Shown one piece after another: positions 147-46,486 of a stretch of 64,000 nt of DNA (its first letter is position 1; each line of letters begins with the position of its first letter). Under the pieces are notes generated by a model. It was not told the DNA's origin. It ran no database searches and saw only the letters and a program-made list of their open reading frames with translations. The stretch is from Acidobacteriota bacterium (GTDB lineage: Bacteria; Acidobacteriota; Terriglobia; Versatilivoradales; Versatilivoraceae). Where the stretch lies: positions 9,768 through 73,767 of the forward strand of contig JAKEER010000295.1 in NCBI GenBank assembly GCA_022616615.1, read 5' to 3'. The position numbers and the translations under genes are program-made.

Positions 147-3100
147 ATGCTGATCCAGAACCTTTTTGAGCGAAATATCCATCGCCCCATCAACGGGGTC
201 GTCAAGGCCGATCAACTCGACGATTCCTCCGTCTGGCAGGAGCTGGACGAGTTTGTCGTCACTCGCGAACTGGACCAACATCTCCGCCGGTTCTTCTCCG
301 CTTACACCGACGCCATCAGCCAGAAGAAAGACCCCGATGTGGCAAGCAAGATTGGCGTCTGGGTTTCCGGTTTCTTTGGATCAGGCAAATCGCACTTCAT
401 CAAAGTTCTTTCCTACCTGCTTCGTAACCACGAGCATTCCCATGAGGGCCAGACCAAGAGAGCTACTGAATTTTTTCAAAGCAAGATCCAAGACGCCATG
501 CTGTTTGGCGACATTCAGCGATCTGTCGCATCAAATACGGATGTCATTCTATTCAATATCGACAGCAAGGCCGACAGTCGCGCTGGACGGGACGCCATTC
601 TCCAAGTCTTCTTGAAGGTCTTGAATGAAATGCAGGGCTACAGCGGCGATCATCCGCACATCGCTCACATGGAACGCTATCTGGAGAGCAAGGGAAAGCT
701 GCAACAGTTTCACGAGGCGTACGAGGCGGCGACAGGCGCCGGCTGGCACACCGAGCGCGACGCCTATCAGTTCAACCGGGACGAAGTCGTCAAGGCGCTC
801 ACCGGCACCCTCAACCTCAGCAAAGAATCAGCGGACAAGTGGATTGATGGGGCCGAAACCAGCTTTGCCCTTACTATTGAGAACCTCTGCAAGTGGGTTA
901 AAGACTACCTGGACTCCAAAGGTCCGGATCATCGCCTGCTGTTTCTGGTCGATGAAGTCGGTCAGTTTATTGGCACTGATTCCCATCTCATGCTCAATCT
1001 GCAAACAATCACTGAAGAATTGGGAACGATCTGCCAAGGCCGCGCCTGGGTCGTCGTCACTTCGCAAGAAGACATCGATTCTGTCCTGGGTGAGATGAAG
1101 CAAAGCCGCGCCAACGATTTTTCCAAGATCCAGGGCCGATTCAGAACTCGTCTCTCGCTGTCCAGTGCCAACGTCGATGAAGTCATTCAATCCCGGCTGC
1201 TGGCCAAGCACCAGGAAGTGGAGGAGGAGCTTCGAGACATTTTCAAGACCAAAGGCGACATCCTTAAAAACCACCTCACCTTCACCCAATGCGGGATGAC
1301 GCTCAAGCCCTATAAGGACCGCGACGACTTCGTTAGGAACTACCCCTTCGCTCCTTACCAGTTTCAGCTCGTACAAAAAATCTTCGAAGCCATTCGACGG
1401 GCCGGAGCCACCGGTCTGCACCTGTCCCGTGGAGAACGTTCCGTCCTCGATGCTTTTCAGTCGGCAGGCAAGCAAGTCGCACTCAACGAAATCGGGATTC
1501 TTGTCCCGCTCTATCGATTCTACCCATCCATTGAGAGCTTCCTCGACACTGCGGTCAAACGCACCATCGACCAAGCCAGAGTCAATGCCAGCCTGGAGGA
1601 CTTTGACATCCACCTTCTCCAAGTTCTTTTCCTCATTCGATACGTCGATGAAATGAAAGGCAACGTCGATAACCTGGTCACCCTTTGCCTCGACCAGATC
1701 GATGCCGACCGGCTGGCACTGCGGCGCAAGATCGAAGCTAGTCTTGGACGGCTGGAGAAAGAAACGCTCATCAGTCGCAATGGCGATATCTATTTCTTTC
1801 TCACCAACGAAGAAAGAGACATCGGCCGGGAGATCAAGTCGGTTGAGATCAACTCTGGTGAAGAGCCAAAGCTCCTGGGTGAACTCATCTTCACTGAAGT
1901 CTTGAAAGATCAACGAAAGTACCGCTACCCCGTCAACAAGATGGATTTCGCATTCAACCGCGTCTGCGACCTTTACACAGTTGGCAATCGGTCAGACGGG
2001 GCTCTCCAAGTCTCGGTCGTCACGCCTTTGAATGATGACTACGACTACTACGACAAAGGGAAACGTATTCTCGAAAGTGGCGCGGAAGGTGGGCAAGTCC
2101 TCTTCAAGTTGGGCAATGACGACAAGCTAAGCCGCGAACTGCGGATCTATCTGCAAACCGACAAATACGTCAAGCATAAGAGCGATGGCACTCAGGCAGA
2201 ATCAACCAAAAAGATTCTCAGGGGAATCGCTGAAGACAATCAGGAACGGCGCGGCCGGCTCGTCACCTTGCTAGACGAGCTGTTAGCGAGTTCGGAAGCC
2301 TACGCGGCCAGCCAGCAGCTCAAACTGAAGTCCACGGGCTCCATCACGTCGCTCCACGAATCATTGGAATATCTCGTTCGAAACACTTTCAACAAGATGG
2401 GTTATCTCAAGAAGATCCATCCCGATCCTCTTCCGGAGATCCAGGCCATCCTTCGCAGCAATGATATCGCTCAAGAGACGTTGGACTTGGACATGGAGGA
2501 TGGAAACAAGCAAGCTGTGGATTACCTCCGCAATTATGTCGAACTCTGCTCGGCCACGAGCAAGCAAGTTGTGCTGTACGACCTCATCGACAAAAAGTTC
2601 TCCCTGCGGCCTTACGGCTGGCCTGAAAACGAAGTGCTTGTCATCGTGGCTCGTCTTCTGGTTCTGGGGCAAATCAGCCTCATGATGGATGGTGCCCTCA
2701 TTCCGCTCGACAAGGTCTACGAAGCCATCACCTCACCCGCCAAGCAGCGCAAGATTCTCCTCATCAAACGGCAGACTTCCGATCCAGCGGCTGTGCAGAA
2801 AGCCCGAAGCCTGGGGAAGGAGCTGTTTCATGAAATGGGACCAGACGGTGAAGACCCACTCTTCACGCATTTGCAGATAAAACTCAAAGGCTGGCAGTCC
2901 TCCCTCAACACTTACAAGCCTCTGGCCGACACTGGCGACTACCCGGGCAAAGCGGAGATCGATGATGGACTAGTCCTGATCAAGAAGCTGCTCAGCGACA
3001 CCAGCAGCTTCAAGTTCATCGAACGCTTCAACACATTGAAAGACGACCTGCTGGAATTCGCTGGTCATTTCCAGGATCTGGAGCAGTTCTACGAACACCA

Positions 3101-3740
3101 GAAGCCCTCCTGGGAGAAACTTCGGAAGGCGCATAGCCAGTTCCAGCTCAACCGAATGGAACTGGACCGCGATGGTAAGGCAGGCCCTCCTTTCAGGCGC
3201 ATTGAGCAGATACTTGACGCCAAGAGTCCCTATGCATTGATCCATGAGGGAGAGAAACTGATTAACTCTGTGGCTGGAGTCAACACGGCACTGCTCACCG
3301 AACGCCGCAATCAGGTTGACGAAAGGATCAACGGCTACGTGGCCACTCTCAGCAAAGACATCGCTGCGGCCAACGGCGACGAGAACCTTCGCGTGGCCTG
3401 CCTCCGCCAGTTGGAGTCAGTCCGCCAGCAGATCGCTTCAGAAAACAGCCTGGCCCACATCACCCAAGCGGAAGGCGAGGCTCTCAAGGAATTCGATTTG
3501 GCTGTGGCTCGGATTGAGGTATTCGCCAAGAATGCTGCCGAGAAGGAGACGATCAAAGATCCATCGAAAGACCCGCACAAGCCAACGTCAGCCATCAAGA
3601 AGCAGCGGATTGTCGAACCCGCCAAGCTGGTCAAGACGATCTATCTCGAAACGACAGAGGACGTAGCTGGCTTTCTTGATGATTTACGGCAGGAGCTTGA
3701 AACGGGCATCAACAACAACGAACGCATTCAGATCCGCTGA
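147..3740 (+). CDS. brxC: BREX system P-loop ATPase BrxC (DUF499 family), apparently intact
   Basis: 1197-aa ORF. The N-terminus MLIQNLFERNIHRPINGVVKADQ and Walker A GFFGSGKSHFIKVL are typical of BrxC/PglY. Size and position in the brxB-brxC-pglX-pglZ-brxL order fit. Confidence 0.85.
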   Translation: MLIQNLFERNIHRPINGVVKADQLDDSSVWQELDEFVVTRELDQHLRRFFSAYTDAISQKKDPDVASKIGVWVSGFFGSGKSHFIKVLSYLLRNHEHSHEGQTKRATEFFQSKIQDAMLFGDIQRSVASNTDVILFNIDSKADSRAGRDAILQVFLKVLNEMQGYSGDHPHIAHMERYLESKGKLQQFHEAYEAATGAGWHTERDAYQFNRDEVVKALTGTLNLSKESADKWIDGAETSFALTIENLCKWVKDYLDSKGPDHRLLFLVDEVGQFIGTDSHLMLNLQTITEELGTICQGRAWVVVTSQEDIDSVLGEMKQSRANDFSKIQGRFRTRLSLSSANVDEVIQSRLLAKHQEVEEELRDIFKTKGDILKNHLTFTQCGMTLKPYKDRDDFVRNYPFAPYQFQLVQKIFEAIRRAGATGLHLSRGERSVLDAFQSAGKQVALNEIGILVPLYRFYPSIESFLDTAVKRTIDQARVNASLEDFDIHLLQVLFLIRYVDEMKGNVDNLVTLCLDQIDADRLALRRKIEASLGRLEKETLISRNGDIYFFLTNEERDIGREIKSVEINSGEEPKLLGELIFTEVLKDQRKYRYPVNKMDFAFNRVCDLYTVGNRSDGALQVSVVTPLNDDYDYYDKGKRILESGAEGGQVLFKLGNDDKLSRELRIYLQTDKYVKHKSDGTQAESTKKILRGIAEDNQERRGRLVTLLDELLASSEAYAASQQLKLKSTGSITSLHESLEYLVRNTFNKMGYLKKIHPDPLPEIQAILRSNDIAQETLDLDMEDGNKQAVDYLRNYVELCSATSKQVVLYDLIDKKFSLRPYGWPENEVLVIVARLLVLGQISLMMDGALIPLDKVYEAITSPAKQRKILLIKRQTSDPAAVQKARSLGKELFHEMGPDGEDPLFTHLQIKLKGWQSSLNTYKPLADTGDYPGKAEIDDGLVLIKKLLSDTSSFKFIERFNTLKDDLLEFAGHFQDLEQFYEHQKPSWEKLRKAHSQFQLNRMELDRDGKAGPPFRRIEQILDAKSPYALIHEGEKLINSVAGVNTALLTERRNQVDERINGYVATLSKDIAAANGDENLRVACLRQLESVRQQIASENSLAHITQAEGEALKEFDLAVARIEVFAKNAAEKETIKDPSKDPHKPTSAIKKQRIVEPAKLVKTIYLETTEDVAGFLDDLRQELETGINNNERIQIR

Positions 3741-3746
3741 AATGCT

Positions 3747-3888
3747 AACCACGGATTTCACCGATGACACTGATCAAAGCAGGAAAAGCCAGATCACGTG
3801 AGGTTAATCAAGCGAATTGCGGAGGCGCACAAAACGGTTGAGTTTTTCCACCTCAGGTTCCATCTGTGTTATCCGTGTCATCCGTGGT
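3747..3888. repeat. Inverted pair of CACGGAT-word repeats (R1 3747-3779 forward, R2 3864-3888 reverse) in the brxC/GxxExxY junction
   Basis: R1 is aaccacggatttcaccgatgacactgatcaaag. R2 is ctgtgttatccgtgtcatccgtggt, the reverse complement of accacggatgacacggataacacag. The arms are separated by ~85 nt. Confidence 0.85.
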
Positions 3889-3891
3889 CGA

Positions 3892-4278
3892 GTGAATTCA
3901 GTGATTGCCAAAGAGTTGATCCACAAGGAACTGAGCGAGTCGATCATCGGAGCGGCGATGACGGTTCTGAACACGTTGAAGCCAGGCTTGGATGAAAAGC
4001 TCTATGAGAAAGGATTGGTCATCGAGCTTCGCAAACGGAATCATCAGGTGGAGCAACAGCGGCAGTTTCCGGTGCGCTATGAGGGTCAACTGATCGGAAC
4101 ACTCACCCCAGACTTGATTGTTGACGGCCTGGTGATTGTAGATACCAAGGTTGTCACGGCATTCAACGAAACCCACATGGCGCAGATGTTGGGTTACCTG
4201 AACATCACCGGATTGCGCTTAGCATTATTGCTGAACTTCAAGAACGCCAAGTTGGAATGGAAGCGAGTGGTCCGCTAA
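3892..4278 (+). CDS. GxxExxY protein (PD-(D/E)XK nuclease-fold family)
   Basis: ELSESIIGAAMTVLNTLKPGLDEKLYEKGLVIEL contains the G-x-x-E-x-x-Y motif (GLDEKLY). D...DTK and LLLNF...EWKRV are typical of the family. The start is taken at GTG 3892, after repeat R2; the longer ORF from 3817 translates the repeat. Confidence 0.8.
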   Translation: MNSVIAKELIHKELSESIIGAAMTVLNTLKPGLDEKLYEKGLVIELRKRNHQVEQQRQFPVRYEGQLIGTLTPDLIVDGLVIVDTKVVTAFNETHMAQMLGYLNITGLRLALLLNFKNAKLEWKRVVR

Positions 4279-4498
4279 CCACGGATTACACGGATGACAC
4301 GGATAAAGGCTGAAGATCAGATTGTGCGAAACTGATTTCAACCTGCATTTACTATTCAGGTTTTAGGCTGCTATCTGTTGAACAACCTGGATCGTTATTG
4401 GTTTGAAGGCTGACGAACATCCTTGTCGTCCACAGGTCTGTGACTCGTGGCCGATTATCGCAATGCTTTAATCGGTGTTATCCGTGTCATCCGTGGTT
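4277..4498. repeat. Inverted pair of CACGGAT-word repeats (R3 4277-4309 forward, R4 4473-4498 reverse) in the GxxExxY/pglX junction
   Basis: R3 is aaccacggattacacggatgacacggataaagg and overlaps the GxxExxY stop codon. R4 is cggtgttatccgtgtcatccgtggtt. A ~160-nt spacer lies between them. Confidence 0.9.
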
Positions 4499-4512
4499 GT
4501 CTTTTGCTTTAT

Positions 4513-5186
4513 ATGAATCGCACCAAGCTCAAGAACTACGCTACCCAGGCACGTCGCGACTTCATCCAGGCCGTCACAGATCGTGCGGCCTACCACGGCC
4601 TCACCGCCAAGAAGGTGGAGCCTGTTACCCAGAAGGGTGACGTGGCCATCATCGAGGGCACGGCGTTTCCCCGGAGCGCCGTCCGGAAACGGAAGCGGCT
4701 GGAAGAACGGATCAGCCAGCATGGCTTTCAGCAGACGATGGAAGCGATGGCCTATACCTGGCCACAGGGTTGTACAAAGACCACCTGCAAACTTACAAGA
4801 AGCGCCCCATCTACTGGCTGTTTTCAAGCGGCAAACAGAGGGCGTTCCAGTGCCTTGTCTATCTCCACCGCTACCACGAAGGCACCCTGGCACGAATGCG
4901 CACGGAATACGTGATTCCCCTTCAGGGCAAGATCGCAGCCCGTCTTGAGCATCTAGCGCGTGATATTGCAGGAGCGGCCTCGACGACTCTCCGTCGAAAA
5001 CTGGAGAAGGAACGTGACGCGCTTCTAAAACATCAGAACGAACTACGCACGTTCGACGAAAAACTGCGCCACTACGCCGACCAGCGCATCAGCCTGGACC
5101 TCGATGATGGTGTGAAGGTGAACTACGGCAAGTTCGGCGACCTCCTGGCTGAAGTTAAAGCCATAACCGGAGGAAGCGACGACTAA
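4513..5186 (+). pseudogene. pglX: pglX (BREX adenine methyltransferase) remnant: N-terminal ~83 codons fused out of frame to C-terminal ~135 codons, methyltransferase core missing
   Basis: 4513-4761 encodes MNRTKLKNYATQARRDFIQAVTDRAAYHGL...MEAMAYTW, a PglX N-terminus. 4770-5186, in another frame, encodes ...KKRPIYWLFSSGKQRAFQCLVYLHRYHEGTLARMRTEYV...DLDDGVKVNYGKF, a PglX C-terminus. Intact PglX proteins are roughly 1100-1250 aa. Confidence 0.8.
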
Positions 5187-5203
5187 CTTCAGCCAAGAGG
5201 CTT

Positions 5204-5291
5204 GACCACGGATCACACGGATGGCACGGATAGTGCAGGTGCAAGACAAGGAATTGGATTTCTATCGGTGTCATCCATGTGATCCGTGGTT
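5204..5291. repeat. Inverted pair of CACGGAT-word repeats (R5 5204-5233, R6 5262-5291), hairpin with 28-nt loop
   Basis: R5 is gaccacggatcacacggatggcacggatag. R6 is ctatcggtgtcatccatgtgatccgtggtt. 26 of 30 positions are complementary. Confidence 0.9.
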
Positions 5292-5335
5292 CAATAACCG
5301 TCGTTGAATCGCTTGTAAGGAAGGAGTAACTCCAT

Positions 5336-5569
5336 ATGTCTTCGAACGTCACGTTGCAGGAAGCCCAGGCCCACTTGGCTGAGCTGATCGCCAAACTGGC
5401 CCCTGGTGAGGAAGTCGTCATCCTCCAAAATGACCAACCCATAGCGAAGCTCGTAGGCGAACCCGCGGCGATCCGTCAACCCCGGCAACCGGGCAGCGCC
5501 AAAGGCAGGCTAACGATCTTGGCAAACGATGACGACCATCTGGATGACTTCAAAGAGTACATGCAATGA
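5336..5569 (+). CDS. Type II antitoxin, Phd/YefM (prevent-host-death) family
   Basis: 77 aa. MSSNVTLQEAQAHLAELIAKLAPGEEVVILQNDQPIAKLV is a typical Phd/YefM-like N-terminus. The ATGA overlap with the downstream PIN gene indicates translational coupling. Confidence 0.75.
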   Translation: MSSNVTLQEAQAHLAELIAKLAPGEEVVILQNDQPIAKLVGEPAAIRQPRQPGSAKGRLTILANDDDHLDDFKEYMQ

Positions 5570-5952
5570 GGCTGCTGCTCGACACGCATACGTTCTTGTG
5601 GTTTCTGCTGAATGACGCGCAATTGACTGAAACCGCAAGGAGCTTGATTGCCGATTCCGGCAACGACATTGAGATCAGCCCGGCCAGCATCTGGGAGATT
5701 GCCATCAAGATCAGCTTGGGCAAGTACGCGCTAACCGAACCGCTCGAAGCGTTCATGGAACGCGAGATGACGGCAAACGGATTCCGCCTTTTGGCGCTTG
5801 AGATCAAGCACATCTCGGTGGTCACGACGCTGCCGTTCCATCACCGCGATCCCTTCGACAGATTGTTGGTGGCACAGGCCATCGCCGAGCAGATCCCAAT
5901 CATCAGCGGAGACCAGATGCTGGATGCCTACCCCGTGCAGCGGCTGTGGTAA
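5566..5952 (+). CDS. vapC: Type II toxin VapC (PIN-domain ribonuclease)
   Basis: 128 aa. LLLDTHTFLWF...SPASIWEIAIKISLGK...HHRDPFDRLLVAQA carries the PIN acidic residues and typical VapC motifs. Confidence 0.8.
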   Translation: MRLLLDTHTFLWFLLNDAQLTETARSLIADSGNDIEISPASIWEIAIKISLGKYALTEPLEAFMEREMTANGFRLLALEIKHISVVTTLPFHHRDPFDRLLVAQAIAEQIPIISGDQMLDAYPVQRLW

Positions 5953-5959
5953 GGATTTT

Positions 5960-6122
5960 GATCACGGATAGCACGGACAACACGTGTGAAGTAAGCCTTG
6001 ACACCATGAAGAATGTAGCCCCAGTGACTTTATTTTATGGCAAGGTCCCCTGTTGATGATGCCAGTAACGACCCGAGTTGGGACCAAGTCTCTTATCAGT
6101 GTTATCCGTGTCATCAGTGGTT
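5960..6122. repeat. Inverted pair of CACGGAT-word repeats (R7 5960-5984, R8 6097-6122) in the vapC/pglZ junction
   Basis: R7 is gatcacggatagcacggacaacacg. R8 is cagtgttatccgtgtcatcagtggtt. This pair is a more degenerate copy of the same family. Confidence 0.8.
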
Positions 6123-6133
6123 GAGAACTGCTA

Positions 6134-8777
6134 ATGGATTCCAAGCAAATCAACGACGCGCTGGACCGCGTCTTTAACCAGGAGGCAGAACGGATCGTCT
6201 TCTGGAACGATCCTGATGCTGAGTTCCGGGAGTTCGTGGACCGTCTCCCCATTCTCACGTTCGGCAGCGTGAGCGTGAACATTCTGCGTCTGGACCAGAC
6301 CAGCGCCCTTGAGGCCAAGATCCGGTTGGAACAGGAAGCTCCAGATCATCGCTTCTTGGTCTACTCGCCAACGGAAGAGCCTGACTACGAGAAGGACTGG
6401 TTGCTGGACATCCGCCTCTTCAGCCGCAGCTTTCGTGCTGACAAAGCTTCAATCGTGCTCGACGAGCTTGGCCTGACAAACCAACACCTTCGGCTACACC
6501 TGGCCGAACGGCGCAAGTTCTTCGACAACAAGGAGCGCCTTCAGAAGATGAAGTCCCTGGTCGCGGCAGACGACGCCGCTGCCGATCTGGACCAGAAGAT
6601 GATCGCGGTGGTCGCTAAGGCGGAGCAGCCTGAGTTCTTCAACATCATCCGCACACTATTCCACACTTTCGCCGAAACAGCCCAGGGCATTGACTTGGAT
6701 ACTCCGCCTACGGTCTGGGAGCAGGTTGAGAGATTTGATTTAGCCGAGCCCTTCTGGCAGATGGTGAGAACTTGCATTCGGTTATTCGGAACAAGACCCG
6801 AACCTGAAGAACTTCCTCATTCAACTGTTTGTTACCGATTTTGCTCAGCAGTTAAAGACAGGGTTGCCACCCGCTCTTCAGCATCTTCAATTGCCCTCGG
6901 GAGGCCGGGCGAACGCCGTTGTCTGCCTGGCTCAGTGGCGCGACAGTAGCAGCAAGGGAAGCAGCTATGATCGTCTTTCCGCCTTGGTTGCTGCCCTGAT
7001 CAAGCTCTGGGATTGCCTCGGTTCCACTGAGATGGGTGGTCTGATTGACGTGATGACGTTCCGGATTGTGGACCAGAAAATTGCCAACACCTTGTGCGAG
7101 CGAGTGAAGAACACGGCAGACACGATCAATGCGGATGAGGTCCGTGCCATCGCGACCCGCCGACAAGCAGGCCATTGGGCTTCACTAAGCGTTTCCGGAG
7201 CGCCCGAGGTTCTTCGAAAGCCACTCCATGCGGTTTTCGATGCGTTGGTGGCTGCCAGCGAGTTCTTTGCCTTGCGGAACCAACACCAGAGCAGCTTCGA
7301 TTTTGCTGATGCCGCTGGGCTGTATCGCGCCTATGAGAAGGAACTCTACCGCTACGACCAGTTGTATCGGCATTTCTGCGAGTCCGCCGATGATGCCGAG
7401 GCGGAGGGCTGGGATGTTCTCAAGTCTCTGCGCGAGTCTTTGGAAGCCTGTTATGCCAACTGGTATCTCCCTACGCTTGGCCTGAGTTGGGGCAAGTTTG
7501 TCGAACCAGCAAGCCAACTCCCCTTGTTGACCCATTGGCGGATTGATGAAGTTCCCAGCCAGCAGCAGTTCTTCGAAGAGCACGTTCGGAGACGATTGGA
7601 AGAAGCCGAGAACCGCAAGGTTTACGTCATTATCAGCGATGCTTTCCGCTATGAAGCAGCCGAGGAGCTGAGCCGCGAACTCAACGGCAAGTATCGCTTT
7701 GAAGCCAGCCTCACATCTCAACTGGGGGTGCTGCCTTCTTATACCGCTTTGGGGATGGCCAGTTTACTGCCCCACAAGAAGTTGGCCTACAAGGCCAATG
7801 GTGAGGTTCTCGTGGACGATTTGCCCACCGTTACGCTTGAGGACCGGAACGATATCCTTGCTGCGAGAAGCGGAATGACTTGCAAGCCTACGGATTTGAC
7901 GGAGAGAAAGAAGGACGAAGGAAGAGAGTTCGTCAGTGGAAAACGAGTGGTTTACATCTACCACAACACGATTGACGCCACGGGTGAATCGAACATCACT
8001 GAGGGACGAACTTTTCATGCAGTGCGAACGGCGATTAATGAGCTGGCCTCCCTGGTGAGTTACATCATCAACAACCTGAACGGCAACTTCATTCTGATCA
8101 CGGCAGATCATGGGTTCCTTTTCACTGAGACAACTCCCGGTGAGCCTGAGAAGAGCAAAGTTCAGCAGAAGCCGGAAGGCACCGTCCAATTAAAGAAGCG
8201 ATATCTGATCGGGCAGGATCTTCCCGACCATGAATCGGTTTGGCACGGCAGGACTTCAATCACAGCAGAGGCCGAGGGAGATATGGAGTTTTGGATTCCC
8301 AAGGCAGCCAATCGGTTCCATTTCCTTGGTGGAGGACGCTTTATCCACGGTGGCGCGATGCCGCAAGAGACTGTCGTTCCGCTCATTACGGTGAGGCACG
8401 TCAAAGGGAAGTCTATTAAGGACACCACTACCAAGTTTGTCACGGTCCATGTGCTGGGAAGCAGCCACAAGATCACGACGAACCGGCACCGATTTGAATT
8501 GATTCAGATGGAGCCAGTAACCGAGCGGGTCAAACCGGTGACCCTCAAGGTAGCCATCTACGAAGGCGATGAGCCCGTGACCAACATCGAAGCCGTGACC
8601 TTCGATAGTGCCTCAGACAAGATGGAGGACCGGAGAAAGTGGGTTCCTTTGGTCTTGCGGGATCGGCAGTACAACAAGAAGACCTCCTACTATCTGATTT
8701 TGCGAGACTCCAAAACCAACCTCGAACAACAGCGGGTTGAAGTGACAATTGACAAGGCATTCAGCGATGACTTCTGA
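6134..8777 (+). pseudogene. pglZ: pglZ (BREX alkaline-phosphatase-fold protein) with a single frameshift near 6765
   Basis: The N-terminal ORF (6134-, frame 2) reads to ...LAEPFWQMV. Homology continues in frame 3 from 6768 as ELAFGYSEQDPNLKNFLIQLFVTDFAQQL...AQWRDSS...ITADHGFLF (PglZ domain). A frame-3 stop TGA lies at 6765-6767. Confidence 0.75.
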
Positions 8778-9145
8778 CACCGACAAACTGCAATTCAATC
8801 TGGACGATCTGCTGAACCGGCACTTTGCCGGCCGGGTGGTTCGCAAGGATCTGACCAAACTGGTGAAGGAAGGCGCCAACGTTCCAGTGTACGTGCTGGA
8901 ATATCTGTTGGGATCGTACTGCGCCTCAAACGATGAGGCGGTCATCGAGGACGGTCTCAAGACGGTGAAAAAGATCCTCGCGGAAAACTACGTCCGGCCC
9001 GACGAGGCCGAAAAAGTGAAATCGACGATTCGGGAGCGCGGCAGCCTGAAGGTGATCGACAAGATTTCCGTAACACTTAATGAAAAAAGGGATGTCTACG
9101 AGGCCCTGCTTGCAAACCTGGGAGTGAAAGGCGTGGAAGTGACCA
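8767..9145 (+). pseudogene. brxL: brxL (BREX Lon-like protease) 5' remnant, about 125 of about 680 codons
   Basis: MTSDTDKLQFNLDDLLNRHFAGRVVRKDLTKLVKEGANVPVYVLEYLLGSYCASNDEAVIEDGL...VRPDEAEKVKS...VIDKISVTLNEKRDVYEALLANLGVKGVEV matches the BrxL N-terminus. The ATG overlaps the pglZ end. After ~9145 the ORF continues to 9672 in unrelated low-complexity sequence. Confidence 0.75.
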
Positions 9146-9149
9146 GTAG

Positions 9150-9309
9150 CACCTCTGCAGCACTTCGAGCACCGGCGGCAGGACTTCATAATCGACTTCG
9201 ATCAAGTCGAGCGCCTCTTCGGCCAGATGTGAGCACGCTCTCTCCGCTGGTGCAGCAGAGCGACCGCCTCCTTCAAACTCTTGGGTGTGGCATAATCAAA
9301 GGCGCGCAA
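9150..9309 (-). pseudogene. Juxtaposed fragments of xanthine dehydrogenase/CO dehydrogenase family genes (FAD-subunit N-terminus plus a molybdopterin-subunit internal piece)
   Basis: The minus strand reads (TTG)RAFDYATPKSLKEAVALLHQ, like a CoxM/XdhB N-terminus. It then switches frame to AEEALDLIEVDYEVLPPVLEVLQ, like a CoxL/XdhA internal motif. Both pieces are far too short to be functional. Confidence 0.4.
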
Positions 9310-9578
9310 GAGGTTTCCTCACTTTCTTTTCGCTGTTTTTCGCTGTGTCTCGGAACAGTTCCAGCAGGATTTCTCCAGGCAGTTAGAATGAAATGGAGCG
9401 CTGGCGGCTGGCATCACAAGCGAAGCCCACGCGGCACGCAACGAGGATCACTGGGCGCTCCACAGGCCTGCAAAGGTACTCGGCCTCCCTCACTTCAGCC
9501 GCCGCCGGGGTCAGAAGGCCAGAAACTTGCTAGGTCGCTTGGCGCGATGAGATTCACAGTTCAGTCAAGTTCAGAAGA

Positions 9579-9653
9579 GTGGCAGCGGCATCCTGCCGCT
9601 GCCGGCCAGCGGCATCCTGCCGCTGCCGGCCAGCGGCTGGAAGCCGCTGCCAC
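9579..9653. repeat. Tandem 24-bp repeat (2.5 copies); each unit is a CAGCGGC/GCCGCTG hairpin, and the whole is bracketed by gtggcagcgg/ccgctgccac
   Basis: cagcggcatcctgccgctgccggc occurs at 9583-9606 and again at 9607-9630. A variant, cagcggctggaagccgctgcc, follows. Confidence 0.9.
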
Positions 9654-9820
9654 TTTAGCTGTCCTCGGCTGACCCAGCGGCCTGATCTCGCTGTAGCCCA
9701 GGAGTCAGCAAGGGCTGTACCTCGACACGATCACCTCGAGGGAGCCTTGCCTTTTTCCTAGACACTGTTGAATTGTTCATCTAAGATCTCGCCTGCTTTG
9801 CGCAGGAAGAAGTCAGCTTT

Positions 9821-9924
9821 CAGGTCTCGGGCTCCGTGCAATCTGAAACCGCAAACCCCGCCAGGTTCGGAAGAAAGCAACGGTAGTGGAGCTTCAGATG
9901 TGCCGCGGAATCACCCGGGGCCTG
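9821..9924 (+). ncRNA. ffs: Signal recognition particle RNA, small (4.5S) type
   Basis: GCCAGGUUCGGAAGAAAGCAACGG matches the conserved SRP domain IV (E. coli CAGGUCCGGAAGGAAGCAGCC), including the GGAA tetraloop. The closing helix caggtctcggg/cccggggcctg has 9 WC and 2 GU pairs, and there is an internal helix atctgaa/ttcagat. The position directly upstream of dnaX-ybaB-recR is a common synteny. Confidence 0.7.
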
Positions 9925-13138: not shown

Positions 13139-13633
13139 TGCCACCTTCTCCCAAACCGTGCGACGGGCGCACCCTAACGGGCCGGAGCAGCAAGAGTCGT
13201 CGTGCTGAGCAGGCTCTCAGACAGCGAGGGGCAGATGCATTGGCTATCGAGAGAGTTCAAGGCGCCAGAGCAGGTCGCCGTGCTCGACGATCAATCGCAA
13301 ATGCCTTCAGAGCTGAGCAATCGGCAAATTAGTCCTTGACCCACTCGGGGCGGTTCTCTATGATTCCCCCACCCTGCGATGTTCGTGTTGGCACACCAAT
13401 ATTTGTACCAACACCTATTTGTAAGGGATCCCGTGTCGTTTCACGGTGTGCAAGCTTCACCATGTGAAGTTTCCTAAAGTGAAAGCTAGGGAGCCCACCT
13501 GGTTACCAGGTGCAAATAGAGTGCCTCACGGCAAAGCGGGGTTTTCGTGTTTCTGGCGCTGGCCTGGAAAACAGTGACAAGAGCGCGGCGAAGGACACCG
13601 CGTCCTACCCTTCGACCCTCACATGGAGCCATC

Positions 13634-45198: not shown

Positions 45199-46470
45199 AT
45201 GCCTATTTTCCAAGACCCCGTCGAAATAGAAGGTCATCTGATCGATTCAGGCATTCTCAAGTATGCCTTCGACAAAATTGTCGAGCACCAGGGTCAGTTT
45301 GAGGTGCTGGATTTTCGCATTGGGAGAAATAACCAGGAGACGTCCAAAGTTCGCCTGATGGTCCGGGCGGGGAGCCCGGAGCAGTTAGAGCGGATTCTGG
45401 CGGCGCTGGAAGACTTCGGCGCCGTGGTGGATTGGGACGACTGTCAGTTCCTTGCTGCGCAACAGGACAACATCCTGCCCGACGACTTCTACTCCACGAC
45501 GAATTTCGACACCTTCGTTAAGCTGAATGGCGAATGGTTTCCGGTGACGAACCAGAAAATGGACTCTGTGATCGTGTGGGAGGATGGCTGTGCCACGACC
45601 AAGAAGATCAGCGAAGTGAAAGCTGGCGATCAGGTCGCTGTGGGCCGGAAAGGCATCCGCGTCAAGCCTCAGGAGCGCAGCCGCGAATATTCGGTGTTTG
45701 ATTTCATGTCCAACGATCTGACGGCCGAGAACAACAAAAGTCTGCTCATTGCGGAGATCGCCAAGGCAATCGCCCAGGCAAAAGAAACGGGCGGGAAAGT
45801 TGCACTGGTGCCCGGGCCGGCCATCATTCATTCAGGCGCCGACCGGTACCTAAAAGAGATCCTTCAGATGGGTTTCATTGATGTCGTGCTTACCGGTAAT
45901 GCCTTTGCGGTTCACGACATCGAAAAGGCGATGCTCAATACGTCGCTGGGTGTCAATCAGAGCACTGGAAAGCCGGAAGAAGGCGGACACCGCAATCATC
46001 TTTGGGCGATCAATGAAATCAACAAAGCCGGCGGCATTCCGAAGGCCATCGAAGCCGGCGTCCTCAAATCGGGTCTGATGTACGAATGTGTCCGCCAGGG
46101 CGTTCGCTACGTGCTGGCGGGTTCGATTCGCGATGATGGTCCGTTGGTGGATGTGGTTACCGACTGCGTGCAGGCACAGAAGAAATACATTGCCGCACTG
46201 GAAGATGTGTCTGTGGTGTTGATGCTGGCTTCCACGCTTCACAGCATTGCGGTGGGTAATCTGCTGAGAGGCAGTGTGAAGACCGTTTGCGTGGACATCC
46301 ATGAGGCGACGCCCATGAAACTCAGCAATCGGGGCAGCAAGCAGGCCATTGGCCTGGTTACGGATGTTTCGTTCTTTTTGAGCATCCTGGCTGCGGAGCT
46401 CAGACGACACCAGCAGGAAACCGTGGGGCACATTTCACACCTCACGGATCACGCGTCACGTGATGCTTGA
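45199..46470 (+). CDS. TIGR00300 / LOR-SDH conserved-region family protein (ornithine cyclodeaminase-like, function uncertain here)
   Basis: 423 aa. MPIFQDPVEIEGHLIDSGIL...LDFRIGR..., then a Rossmann-like half (VALVPGPAIIHSG...VVLTGNAFAVHDIE...GHRNHL.AIN). Recognition is from memory of the family, not from a search. Confidence 0.55.
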   Translation: MPIFQDPVEIEGHLIDSGILKYAFDKIVEHQGQFEVLDFRIGRNNQETSKVRLMVRAGSPEQLERILAALEDFGAVVDWDDCQFLAAQQDNILPDDFYSTTNFDTFVKLNGEWFPVTNQKMDSVIVWEDGCATTKKISEVKAGDQVAVGRKGIRVKPQERSREYSVFDFMSNDLTAENNKSLLIAEIAKAIAQAKETGGKVALVPGPAIIHSGADRYLKEILQMGFIDVVLTGNAFAVHDIEKAMLNTSLGVNQSTGKPEEGGHRNHLWAINEINKAGGIPKAIEAGVLKSGLMYECVRQGVRYVLAGSIRDDGPLVDVVTDCVQAQKKYIAALEDVSVVLMLASTLHSIAVGNLLRGSVKTVCVDIHEATPMKLSNRGSKQAIGLVTDVSFFLSILAAELRRHQQETVGHISHLTDHASRDA

Positions 46471-46486
46471 AACGTGATCCGTGAGG
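46440..46486. repeat. 14-bp perfect inverted repeat overlapping the 3' end of the TIGR00300-like gene
   Basis: cctcacggatcacg (46440-46453) pairs with cgtgatccgtgagg (46473-46486). The words read cacggat|cacgcgt|cacgtga, and the CACGGAT word also builds the BREX-island repeats. Confidence 0.9.

Follow-up and report, generated by a model that had tools for sequence, protein, structure and literature searches.

Paired heptad-repeat hairpins accompanying GxxExxY nuclease genes and present in a decayed BREX-1 operon

Heptad-arm hairpins and the GxxExxY gene between them

The stretch of DNA analyzed here, 64,000 nucleotides of contig JAKEER010000295.1 from an Acidobacteriota bacterium (assembly GCA_022616615.1; hereafter the window), carries a BREX-1 (bacteriophage exclusion) operon in which four consecutive intergenic spacers, from brxC to pglZ, each hold one forward and one reverse copy of a short repeat arm. 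Between the first two of these pairs lies a small gene of the GxxExxY (PDDEXK_3) nuclease family. The arms, the gene and their counterparts in other genomes are the subject of this report. The eight arms, all within positions 3747–6122, comprise four forward (F) copies with CACGGAT heptads and four reverse (R) copies with ATCCGTG heptads (Table 1). Each consists of three heptads at a 9-nt period, usually with AAC before or GTT after them; a full arm of ∼31 nt begins with a semi-conserved TTKAAC flank, which is followed by the three CACGGAT heptads. An earlier note on this DNA had located the eight arms correctly and had recognized that they are real, paired repeats with each pair bounding one intergenic spacer. 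Its loop range of 28–160 nt needs a small revision, since the measured loops span 32–166 nt.

The density of the repeat is far above chance. The two-heptad pattern CACGGATNNCACGGAT, with up to two mismatches allowed, occurs 17 times in the 64-kb window, where 0.28 matches would be expected by chance, and none of 100 shuffled sequences reached 17; 15 of the 17 matches fall in 3750–6119. No further hairpins of the heptad-arm type were found elsewhere in the window, the remaining DNA being ordinary housekeeping sequence, so that four hairpins lie within 2.4 kb of the GxxExxY gene and none in the other 60 kb. Perfect heptads make up 14 of the 24 in the window arms, and decay has gone furthest in hp4. 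Every F...R pair folds into a single long stem, and hp1–hp3 fold far better than shuffled sequence, the decayed hp4 being the exception. The hairpins nearly fill their spacers: F arms begin 6–20 nt past the upstream stop codon or overlap it, and R arms finish 11–44 nt ahead of the next start codon. The TAA stop codon of the GxxExxY gene falls within the flank, GCTAACCACGG, of the F arm that follows it. hp1 and hp2 have unrelated loops.

Two further features of the window repeats were recorded. The loop-proximal R heptad deviates at its fourth base in all four hairpins (ATCTGTG, ATCGGTG, ATCGGTG, ATCAGTG), which places a central mismatch opposite the third F heptad. The same deviation is present in L007, L177 and L178 and may be an asymmetry built into a subfamily. 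At 46441–46485, at the end of an open reading frame (ORF) spanning 45199–46467, there is a small inverted repeat, CTCACGGATCACG ... CGTGATCCGTGAG, each arm of which holds a single heptad; this may be a degenerate relative of the element with one unit (compare the Treponema copy L196) or an unrelated hairpin.

The suspicion of the earlier note that the repeats inflate ORF calls holds for the window, where ORF 3817–4278 begins within an R arm, and also for database homologues, in which translated arms appear as N-terminal extensions (e.g., 'SPQRTQRHTE' in P0199).

The window GxxExxY protein matches PF13366 (E 1.6e-35) and TIGR04256 (E 8.8e-38). The GxxExxY, PD and (D/E)xK motifs, together with several further residues, are invariant across the two superclades described below, and the catalytic E, D and (D/E)xK residues (E36, D71 and K83 in the window protein) are conserved across GxxExxY clades. 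An AlphaFold (AF2) model of the protein has a predicted local distance difference test score (pLDDT) of 94. On the strength of the conserved residues and the confident fold model, the nuclease appears to be active. Among solved structures, the folds closest to the model are those of Cas4, lambda-type exonucleases, tRNA-splicing endonuclease and the Hjc resolvase, at template modeling (TM) scores of ∼0.45–0.58; a sequence search of the PDB returned no match, and the fold search returned only generic PD-(D/E)XK neighbors. As modeled, GxxExxY would be a minimal PD-(D/E)XK nuclease, with a fold that gives no specific functional assignment. A profile search for the PF13366/TIGR04256 family recovered 34,891 clusters at 50% identity (E ≤ 0.001). 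The top-scoring representatives from this search (P0361–P0376) are 240–295 aa long and contain two complete GxxExxY domains, which may reflect either genuine tandem fusion or translation that runs from one gene into its neighbor across in-frame arms. A 2012 survey listed PDDEXK_3 as a family of unknown function that has undergone multiple transfers between divisions and domains (PMC3424549).

Arms accompany GxxExxY genes and recur across phyla

GxxExxY homologues were chosen by protein similarity alone, from among thousands that are 78–91% identical to the window protein; in all 16 places, representing at least six contexts, both ends of the gene have arms. Arms were likewise located within ∼100 nt of all 13 GxxExxY genes in loci L001–L172, including three of three in BREX loci that had been fetched regardless of arms. 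Close homologues that were examined all have arms at the gene ends, and distant ones mostly do. The earlier note had offered a protein-binding array and insertion or recombination sites among its explanations, and both were on the right track: GxxExxY genes are accompanied by the arms as terminal repeats.

The layouts vary. A gene may stand between one F and one R arm (L086, L087, L159, L198), between two hairpins (the window, L178) or in the order F-gene-F...R, and a solo hairpin is often found alongside the gene-bearing unit. In L178 and L043 the flanking hairpins are direct repeats of each other, loops included, and in L177 the gene stands between two direct repeats of the flank with its F arm. 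The surroundings also vary: an identical 134-aa protein (P0028) is encoded in at least four neighborhoods, containing an AcnX operon, AbiE, a UPF0175/DUF3368 pair and an HTH gene, respectively, and its contigs are mosaics in which different modules meet at the gene and its hairpin. Conserved operons are split by GxxExxY genes, between fabD and fabG in Sphingomonas, between the V-ATPase B and D genes in a metagenome contig, between radA and the gene for an FAD-dependent protein in Bacteroides, and between ade and a mannose-1-phosphate guanylyltransferase gene in Bernardetia.

The architecture of three heptads at a ∼9-nt period, in inverted arms at the gene ends, is constant, and the heptad word differs by protein clade. 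In superclade I (motifs GFLE...NFG; the window clade, L150, L049, L074, L196, L190 and L189), the heptad is C(A/G)CGGA(T/A) in 7/7. In superclade II (motifs GLLES...NFN...GIKR; L191/L198, L193, L203, L204, L205, L195 and L194), it is a different word in 7/7, namely CACAGAG, CACGAAG, CACAGAT, CGCGAAG or CGCAGAG; CACGGAT does not occur among them. The window conforms to this division, with a superclade I protein and CACGGAT arms. Bacteroidota hosts have either heptad type, following the protein clade, and a single Gemmatirosa replicon contains two GxxExxY genes, one clade I-like and accompanied by a CGCGGAT hairpin, the other clade II-like and accompanied by a CGCAGAG hairpin. Because the heptad type tracks the protein clade, host taxonomy is not the explanation. 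The clade II-like copy, the second on this replicon (Gemmatirosa plasmid 1, L194:560–1000), is frameshifted, with its domain spread over two frames, and still adjoins a perfect CGCAGAG hairpin.

The exact (CACGGATnn)x3 motif was found at no fewer than 120 loci in a one-genome-per-species collection, against ∼0.3 expected by chance as computed from the size of the collection. Among the matches listed, Verrucomicrobiota, Planctomycetota, Acidobacteriota and Bacteroidota predominate; Leptospirales, Chloroflexota, Gemmatimonadota, Lentisphaerota, Kiritimatiellota, Hydrogenedentota and a few archaeal metagenome-assembled genomes (MAGs) are also represented. About half of the listed loci are F...R paired, with 48 short-loop pairs, and their loops, 10–113 nt long, are unrelated between genomes. 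Fifty-five hairpins from other genomes give a consensus identical to the window arms. Fifty solo hairpins from other genomes are all intergenic, 23 of them between co-directional genes, 13 between convergent and 8 between divergent ones. The 92 ORFs flanking them match 101 Pfam families, mostly of metabolism and housekeeping, among which PDDEXK_3 alone recurs. Solo hairpins outnumber gene copies by ∼10 to 1. A few of the listed matches are irrelevant tandem coding repeats or single-arm-type arrays. The latter include 11 R arms at a 44-nt period (L081:3461–3925) and F arms at a 77-nt period (L061:2380–2700), neither with an inverted partner. In a Ca. Anammoxibacter MAG (L022:300–2500), VapBC and HicAB modules are separated by spacers in which all arm arrays are of the R type, without an F partner; another word, ATTAGTG, recurs in these spacers at a period of ∼10 nt, beside further low-complexity repeats. 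Phages were rejected as carriers: only 15 of 89 viral stretches were paired, none contained GxxExxY and most were tandem coding repeats, and a tblastn search of the phage collection gave no match.

Signs of copying come from comparisons within a genome, the only setting in which loop similarity was seen. Two hairpins on different contigs of one Phycisphaerales MAG (L092 and L107) have 87% of a loop segment in common and share an extended inverted repeat (AACGGCAACGGC..TTTTAAC plus heptads); the similarity ends sharply ∼20 nt beyond the arms, and the flanks are unrelated. Both copies (L092:640–1080, L107:2670–3060) form a much longer palindrome, in which the loop and outer ends consist of a second repeat, of AACGGC hexamers, in inverted orientation. 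The possibility that loops are remnants of a deleted GxxExxY gene was rejected, as tblastn searches for gene remnants in the loops gave nothing better than E 0.08.

The BREX-1 operon and related loci

Profile matches confirm the gene labels that the earlier note had assigned between brxC and pglZ, and the BREX locus itself is decayed. The N-terminal ∼85 aa of PglX are fused out of frame to the C-terminal ∼125 aa, with ∼1000 aa deleted. Given this deletion and frame change, the split pglZ and a brxL reduced to its N-terminal part, the operon is dead. The same decayed gene calls are present in a second assembly (L122), and the locus with its hairpins recurs in two MAG assemblies and a single Logan contig. 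In L121, brxA and brxB lie upstream. Two RNA genes outside the hairpin region are listed in Table 1.

Table 1. Positions in the window of the hairpins, their arms, the GxxExxY gene, the BREX-1 and embedded genes, and two RNA genes
Feature	Position	Strand	Description
hp1	3747–3889	.	143 bp; brxC/GxxExxY spacer; loop 87 nt; DNA fold z −4.1
hp1 F arm	3747–3774		AAC-CACGGAT-tt-CACCGAT-ga-CACTGAT
hp1 R arm	3862–3889		ATCTGTG-tt-ATCCGTG-tc-ATCCGTG-GTC
GxxExxY / PDDEXK_3 gene	3901–4278	+	125 aa; GTG start; between hp1 and hp2
hp2	4277–4498	.	222 bp; GxxExxY/pglX' spacer; loop 166 nt; RNA fold z −5.95
hp2 F arm	4277–4304		all three heptads perfect
hp2 R arm	4471–4498		ATCGGTG-tt-ATCCGTG-tc-ATCCGTG-GTT
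hp3	5204–5291	.	88 bp; pglX'/phd spacer; loop 32 nt; DNA fold z −7.2
hp3 F arm	5204–5231		all three heptads perfect
hp3 R arm	5264–5291		ATCGGTG-tc-ATCCATG-tg-ATCCGTG-GTT
hp4	5960–6122	.	163 bp; vapC/pglZ spacer; loop 107 nt; DNA fold z −2.0
hp4 F arm	5960–5987		GAT-CACGGAT-ag-CACGGAC-aa-CACGTGT
hp4 R arm	6095–6122		ATCAGTG-tt-ATCCGTG-tc-ATCAGTG-GTT
brxC	147–3740		intact
pglX remnant (pglX')	4513–5186	+	NF033452 positions 1–85 and 1086–1210 of 1210, in two different ORFs; host context
phd/vapB	5336–5569	+	antitoxin gene; between hp3 and hp4; host context
PIN vapC	5566–5952	+	toxin gene; between hp3 and hp4; host context
pglZ	6134–6949 and 6864–8777		split into two ORFs
brxL stub	8749–9672		BrxL_N domain only
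SRP RNA, bacterial small	9825–9923		69.6 bits; directly after the brxL stub
6S RNA	13368–13546		78.2 bits; downstream of dnaX-ybaB-recR

The operon was compared with 49 metagenomic BREX-1 loci in which the BrxC C-terminus is 43–71% identical to that of the window. brxC and a recognizable pglX start were present in 41 of the 49, and in 30 of these the gap between the two genes is 5–26 nt and arm-free; in the window it is 775 nt and consists of hp1, GxxExxY and hp2. Arms were found in five of the BREX loci (L150, L152, L159, L160 and L161), three of which (L150, L159 and L161) have GxxExxY directly after brxC. The heptad variant differs by locus, from CACGGAT to CACGGAA in L150 and CACGAAT at five places in L160. 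These genome-specific variants point to independent colonization in each genome, not to common BREX ancestry. The hairpins are facultative at BREX junctions and are not a BREX feature; the specific link to BREX raised in the earlier note is not supported, given the arm-free junctions of 30 of the 41 loci and the 50 solo hairpins beside unrelated housekeeping genes.

The brxC/pglX junction is an insertion hot spot. Arm-free embedded genes occur there in L126, L130–L133, L140 and L153, namely a conserved ∼113-aa ORF (a 374-nt insert, in five loci), a 133-aa ORF and a 345-aa ORF. In L160 the junction holds AbiEi/AbiEii, and arms bracket AbiE and a second gene pair with a P-loop ATPase.

Arms have also entered a coding sequence. 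The variable linker of PglX (after ...HGYLDHGYRVLS) is replaced in frame by a whole hairpin in L150 and L152 and by a single F arm in L160, and the PglX ORF reads through these arms as TTDNTDGTDK...SVKSVKSV (L150:3578–3650, L152:12170–12250, and L160). The same linker has thus been hit in three loci by three different heptad variants, and heptad-like CACGGCT words native to the gene lie ∼20 nt upstream.

The earlier note had also described each gene module of the window as a cassette bracketed by terminal inverted copies. Bracketing of this kind does occur around toxin–antitoxin or Abi modules in two other genomes (L160 and L022). It does not apply to pglX, a native BREX gene in its canonical position, nor to phd-vapC, which occupies the same place between pglX and pglZ in other BREX loci: VapC homologues 68–70% identical to that of the window are present there in 14 other BREX contigs with no intact arms, and the vapC/pglZ gap, 181 nt in the window, is 14 nt in L206–L219. 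The embedded phd/vapC pair looks like a stable accessory of one BREX-1 sublineage, not a single insertion.

A proposed palindromic element with a nuclease partner, and alternative explanations

We consider the arms in the window to be four copies of a dispersed palindromic selfish DNA element that has GxxExxY as its partner and that settled in the dead BREX-1 operon, and we assign this reading a probability of roughly 0.6. The gene-less hairpins would be its more numerous, non-autonomous form, and the gene-bearing form would have the same arms around GxxExxY. The heptads, which change with the protein clade, are probably the binding sites of GxxExxY. According to the mechanism that we propose, GxxExxY would bind the heptads as an oligomer and nick or cut at or near the arm boundary; cutting would promote copying or recombination of the arm-bounded DNA, mostly at short range, and the gene-less hairpins would be spread or maintained in trans, again mostly locally. 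Copying that is mostly short-range would explain the local cluster of four hairpins in the window.

Several observations weigh against this reading. A 125-aa PD-(D/E)XK hydrolase is not known for strand transfer and is not a complete transposase by known chemistry, so that host recombination or replication would have to contribute. Among the matches listed, a GxxExxY gene is present in only 8 of 120 8-kb blocks, and two distant GxxExxY genes (L192 and L197) have no visible arms. R-arm-only loci and tandem arm arrays (L022, L081) are not predicted by a simple inverted-repeat model. The protein clades behind the two 7/7 counts are not phylogenetically independent samples. The radA-linked copy in Bacteroides is fixed at one place in all contigs seen and so is not recently mobile. 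With respect to gain or loss at the phd junction, L216 has a weak two-heptad stretch (gTCGGTGgcTTCCGGGtg) upstream of phd that is a possible arm relic, and the pglX/phd spacer of the window and the arm-free spacers of L206 and L216 are too divergent to decide between the two. Finally, the target-site duplications that the earlier note had proposed looking for were not convincingly present, and no defined insertion target was found, at the L092/L107 ends or at the BREX junctions, where the relatives (BrxC ∼60% identical) are too divergent for base-level reconstruction.

The first alternative is that the hairpins act as RNA, the 25–31-bp duplex being an RNase III site, a 3'-end stabilizer or a polarity insulator, and that inserted genes are expressed or excised as in 23S rRNA intervening sequences; the sequence would then be conserved through spread with the gene, not through protein recognition. 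All four window hairpins lie inside a co-directional operon and fold strongly, the F-gene-R layouts put a whole gene in the loop of a long stem, insertions are tolerated inside the fabD/fabG and V-ATPase operons, and the stem continues past the heptads with matched two-sided changes. Across the 55 hairpins, standard pairs account for 86.9% as compared with 82.1% after shuffling, and the arm covariation score is 0.157 against 0.083 ± 0.007, a value that none of 500 shuffles reached. Two-sided changes occur only at the six flank positions and in the nn spacers, and ∼40% of spacer positions are unpaired. The arms of one copy are therefore alike beyond the consensus, which fits copying as palindromes or weak structural selection. 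Structure alone leaves unexplained why seven bases are held across phyla and yet depend on the clade, and these seven conserved bases per heptad are better explained by sequence recognition than by pairing.

The strand comparisons also speak against a function in RNA. When mismatches were oriented by the co-directional neighbors, G.U was not in excess over A.C in the sense orientation (39 vs 32), giving no strand bias. Convergent and divergent spacers hold hairpins as often as neutral DNA would, and arrays of a single arm type exist (L022, L081). A search of Rfam with region 3600–6300, at the gathering score and at E ≤ 10, gave no match except a chance IRES inside vapC. The insulating terminators suggested in the earlier note find no counterpart in the data, for terminator-like sites number 4 against 2.6 ± 1.6 expected, none of them is a whole hairpin, the stems are followed by GTTxxx without a U-tract, and the hairpins stand in convergent, divergent and co-directional spacers alike. 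The lack of strand bias, of U-tracts and of an Rfam match argues for action at the level of DNA rather than RNA, and we regard the RNA explanation as unlikely. CsrA-type GGA sites and the TwoAYGGAY motif, to which ACGGAU conforms through AYGGAY, were also considered and rejected, as the GGA would be paired in the stem, there is no Rfam match, and the lineages and spacer types do not fit.

Somewhat less probable is that the solo hairpins are footprints or landing pads, with cassettes integrating and excising between directly repeated hairpins to yield a circle and one remaining hairpin, as with solo long terminal repeats or attC sites. The directly repeated hairpins of L178 and L043, the duplicated flank and F arm of L177, the module mosaic around the P0028 gene and its hairpin, and the hairpin-gene-hairpin layout of the window itself would all follow from such traffic. 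It would not account for the unrelated loops of hp1 and hp2, nor for the ∼10-to-1 excess of solo hairpins, which adjoin housekeeping genes with no other cassette traffic. The loops common to dispersed copies in the same genome (L092, L107) fit copying of the hairpin itself, and no recombinase is associated with the hairpins.

Tandem short motifs at fixed spacing are typical of operator and iteron arrays, and arrays in one orientation are found in L022 and L081. On this basis the arms might be arrays bound by some host protein, for instance a nucleoid, partition or regulatory factor, with no role in mobility and with GxxExxY merely adjoining. We find this improbable, because the heptad follows the GxxExxY clade and not host taxonomy, one genome contains two heptad types each beside its own GxxExxY clade, and the many phyla and few archaeal MAGs concerned have no obvious host factor in common. 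A DnaA box was rejected as an identity (TTATCCACA vs TTATCCGTG), since the last three bases differ and the distribution is wrong.

It is very improbable that the hairpins are attC-like sites of an integron-like platform, with a tyrosine recombinase acting on folded single strands and with GxxExxY, pglX' and phd-vapC as cassettes: the imperfect palindromes do end in ...AAC and GTT..., the triplets conserved in the R''/R' boxes of attC (in ∼80% of copies), with a flank consensus of TTTAAC/GTTAAA that loosely fits RYYYAAC/GTTRRRY, a variable loop, partly unpaired spacers and co-directional genes between them, but the outer four box bases fit only partly (the fourth flank base is G in about half of the copies, and the outer RYYY/RRRY is not kept), no integrase was found within 10 kb on either side of brxC or among the listed genes of the remaining window, the genes that separate the hairpins belong to BREX and follow its canonical order instead of forming a cassette array, most hairpins are solitary and adjoin housekeeping genes, the heptad sequence and not structure alone is conserved, and the constant partner is a PD-(D/E)XK nuclease instead of IntI.

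A selfish palindromic element with a nuclease partner has its closest parallel in the REPINs (doublets of repetitive extragenic palindromic, REP, sequences) and their REP-associated tyrosine transposases (RAYTs). Both systems have short palindromic doublets with a variable spacer that are dispersed in intergenic DNA, many gene-less copies per gene, a gene that is itself flanked by the repeat, and a repeat that co-varies with the protein clade. They differ in the partner, here a 125-aa PD-(D/E)XK nuclease (PF13366) and not a domesticated Y1 HUH (IS200/IS605-type) transposase; no Y1 transposase was present among the listed neighbor genes. The arms differ as well, with three heptads at 9-nt spacing that start as (TTK)AAC-CACGGAT and lack GTAG, where REPs are single and have a conserved 5' GTAG/CTAC. 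The heptad is common to many phyla, whereas a REP is specific to its species. RAYTs typically occur as one copy per genome and are passed on vertically. GxxExxY genes, by contrast, are often multi-copy and horizontally spread (PMC3424549).

Miniature inverted-repeat transposable elements (MITEs) and their insertion sequences (IS) offer a second parallel: the window hairpins have terminal inverted repeats, a length of 88–222 bp and no coding capacity in the short form, and elements of both kinds occur as dispersed, sharp-ended copies with common internal sequence in one genome and in a longer, gene-carrying form with the same ends. Here, in comparisons with divergent relatives, no target-site duplication was found, the partner gene is not of a recognized transposase family, and the outermost bases vary while the subterminal heptads are conserved. 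Rickettsia palindromic elements likewise sit in frame inside coding genes without breaking them, as in the PglX linker; to our knowledge they are confined to Rickettsia and have neither heptad arrays nor an associated nuclease gene. The intervening sequences of 23S rRNA (four-helix-bundle or S23p ORF, TIGR02436) resemble the gene-bearing form in enclosing a small ORF of unknown function in an inverted repeat, in inserting into conserved transcription units, and in being patchy across phyla and multi-copy in some genomes. Their protein has another fold, and their stems are RNase III substrates in rRNA, whereas the hairpins described here gave no RNA-level signal.

No description of the repeats or of a link to GxxExxY was found in Rfam or in the searchable literature, which leaves out most subscription journals. 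As a type, the system is like known repeat-plus-enzyme systems; what is new is its enzyme class, its heptad-array ends and its sequence identity across phyla. Beyond the window, we put forward tentatively, and hold as somewhat short of an even chance, that the GxxExxY/PDDEXK_3 family as a whole (∼35,000 clusters) consists of mobilizing, site-specific nucleases of unrecognized pan-bacterial selfish palindromic elements, whose ends would be read as co-evolving arrays of 7-bp words at 9-bp spacing. If so, they would constitute a third repeat-plus-enzyme symbiosis beside IS/MITE and RAYT/REPIN, with elements that insert between operon genes, into defense loci and even in frame into proteins.

The proposal gives a very large family a concrete candidate function, the recognition of a defined heptad array beside its own gene. 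A near-identical repeat across eight or more phyla bears on annotation, assembly and studies of horizontal transfer; annotation is affected in two ways, by inflated ORF calls and by translation of the arms as part of genuine proteins. The words CACGGAT, CACGGAA, CACGAAT, CACAGAG, CACGAAG and CACAGAT form a natural specificity series, which could serve the study or re-engineering of a compact, ∼125-aa DNA-recognizing nuclease. Finally, the repeated independent colonization of BREX junctions and of the PglX linker bears on how defense loci gain embedded genes and decay.

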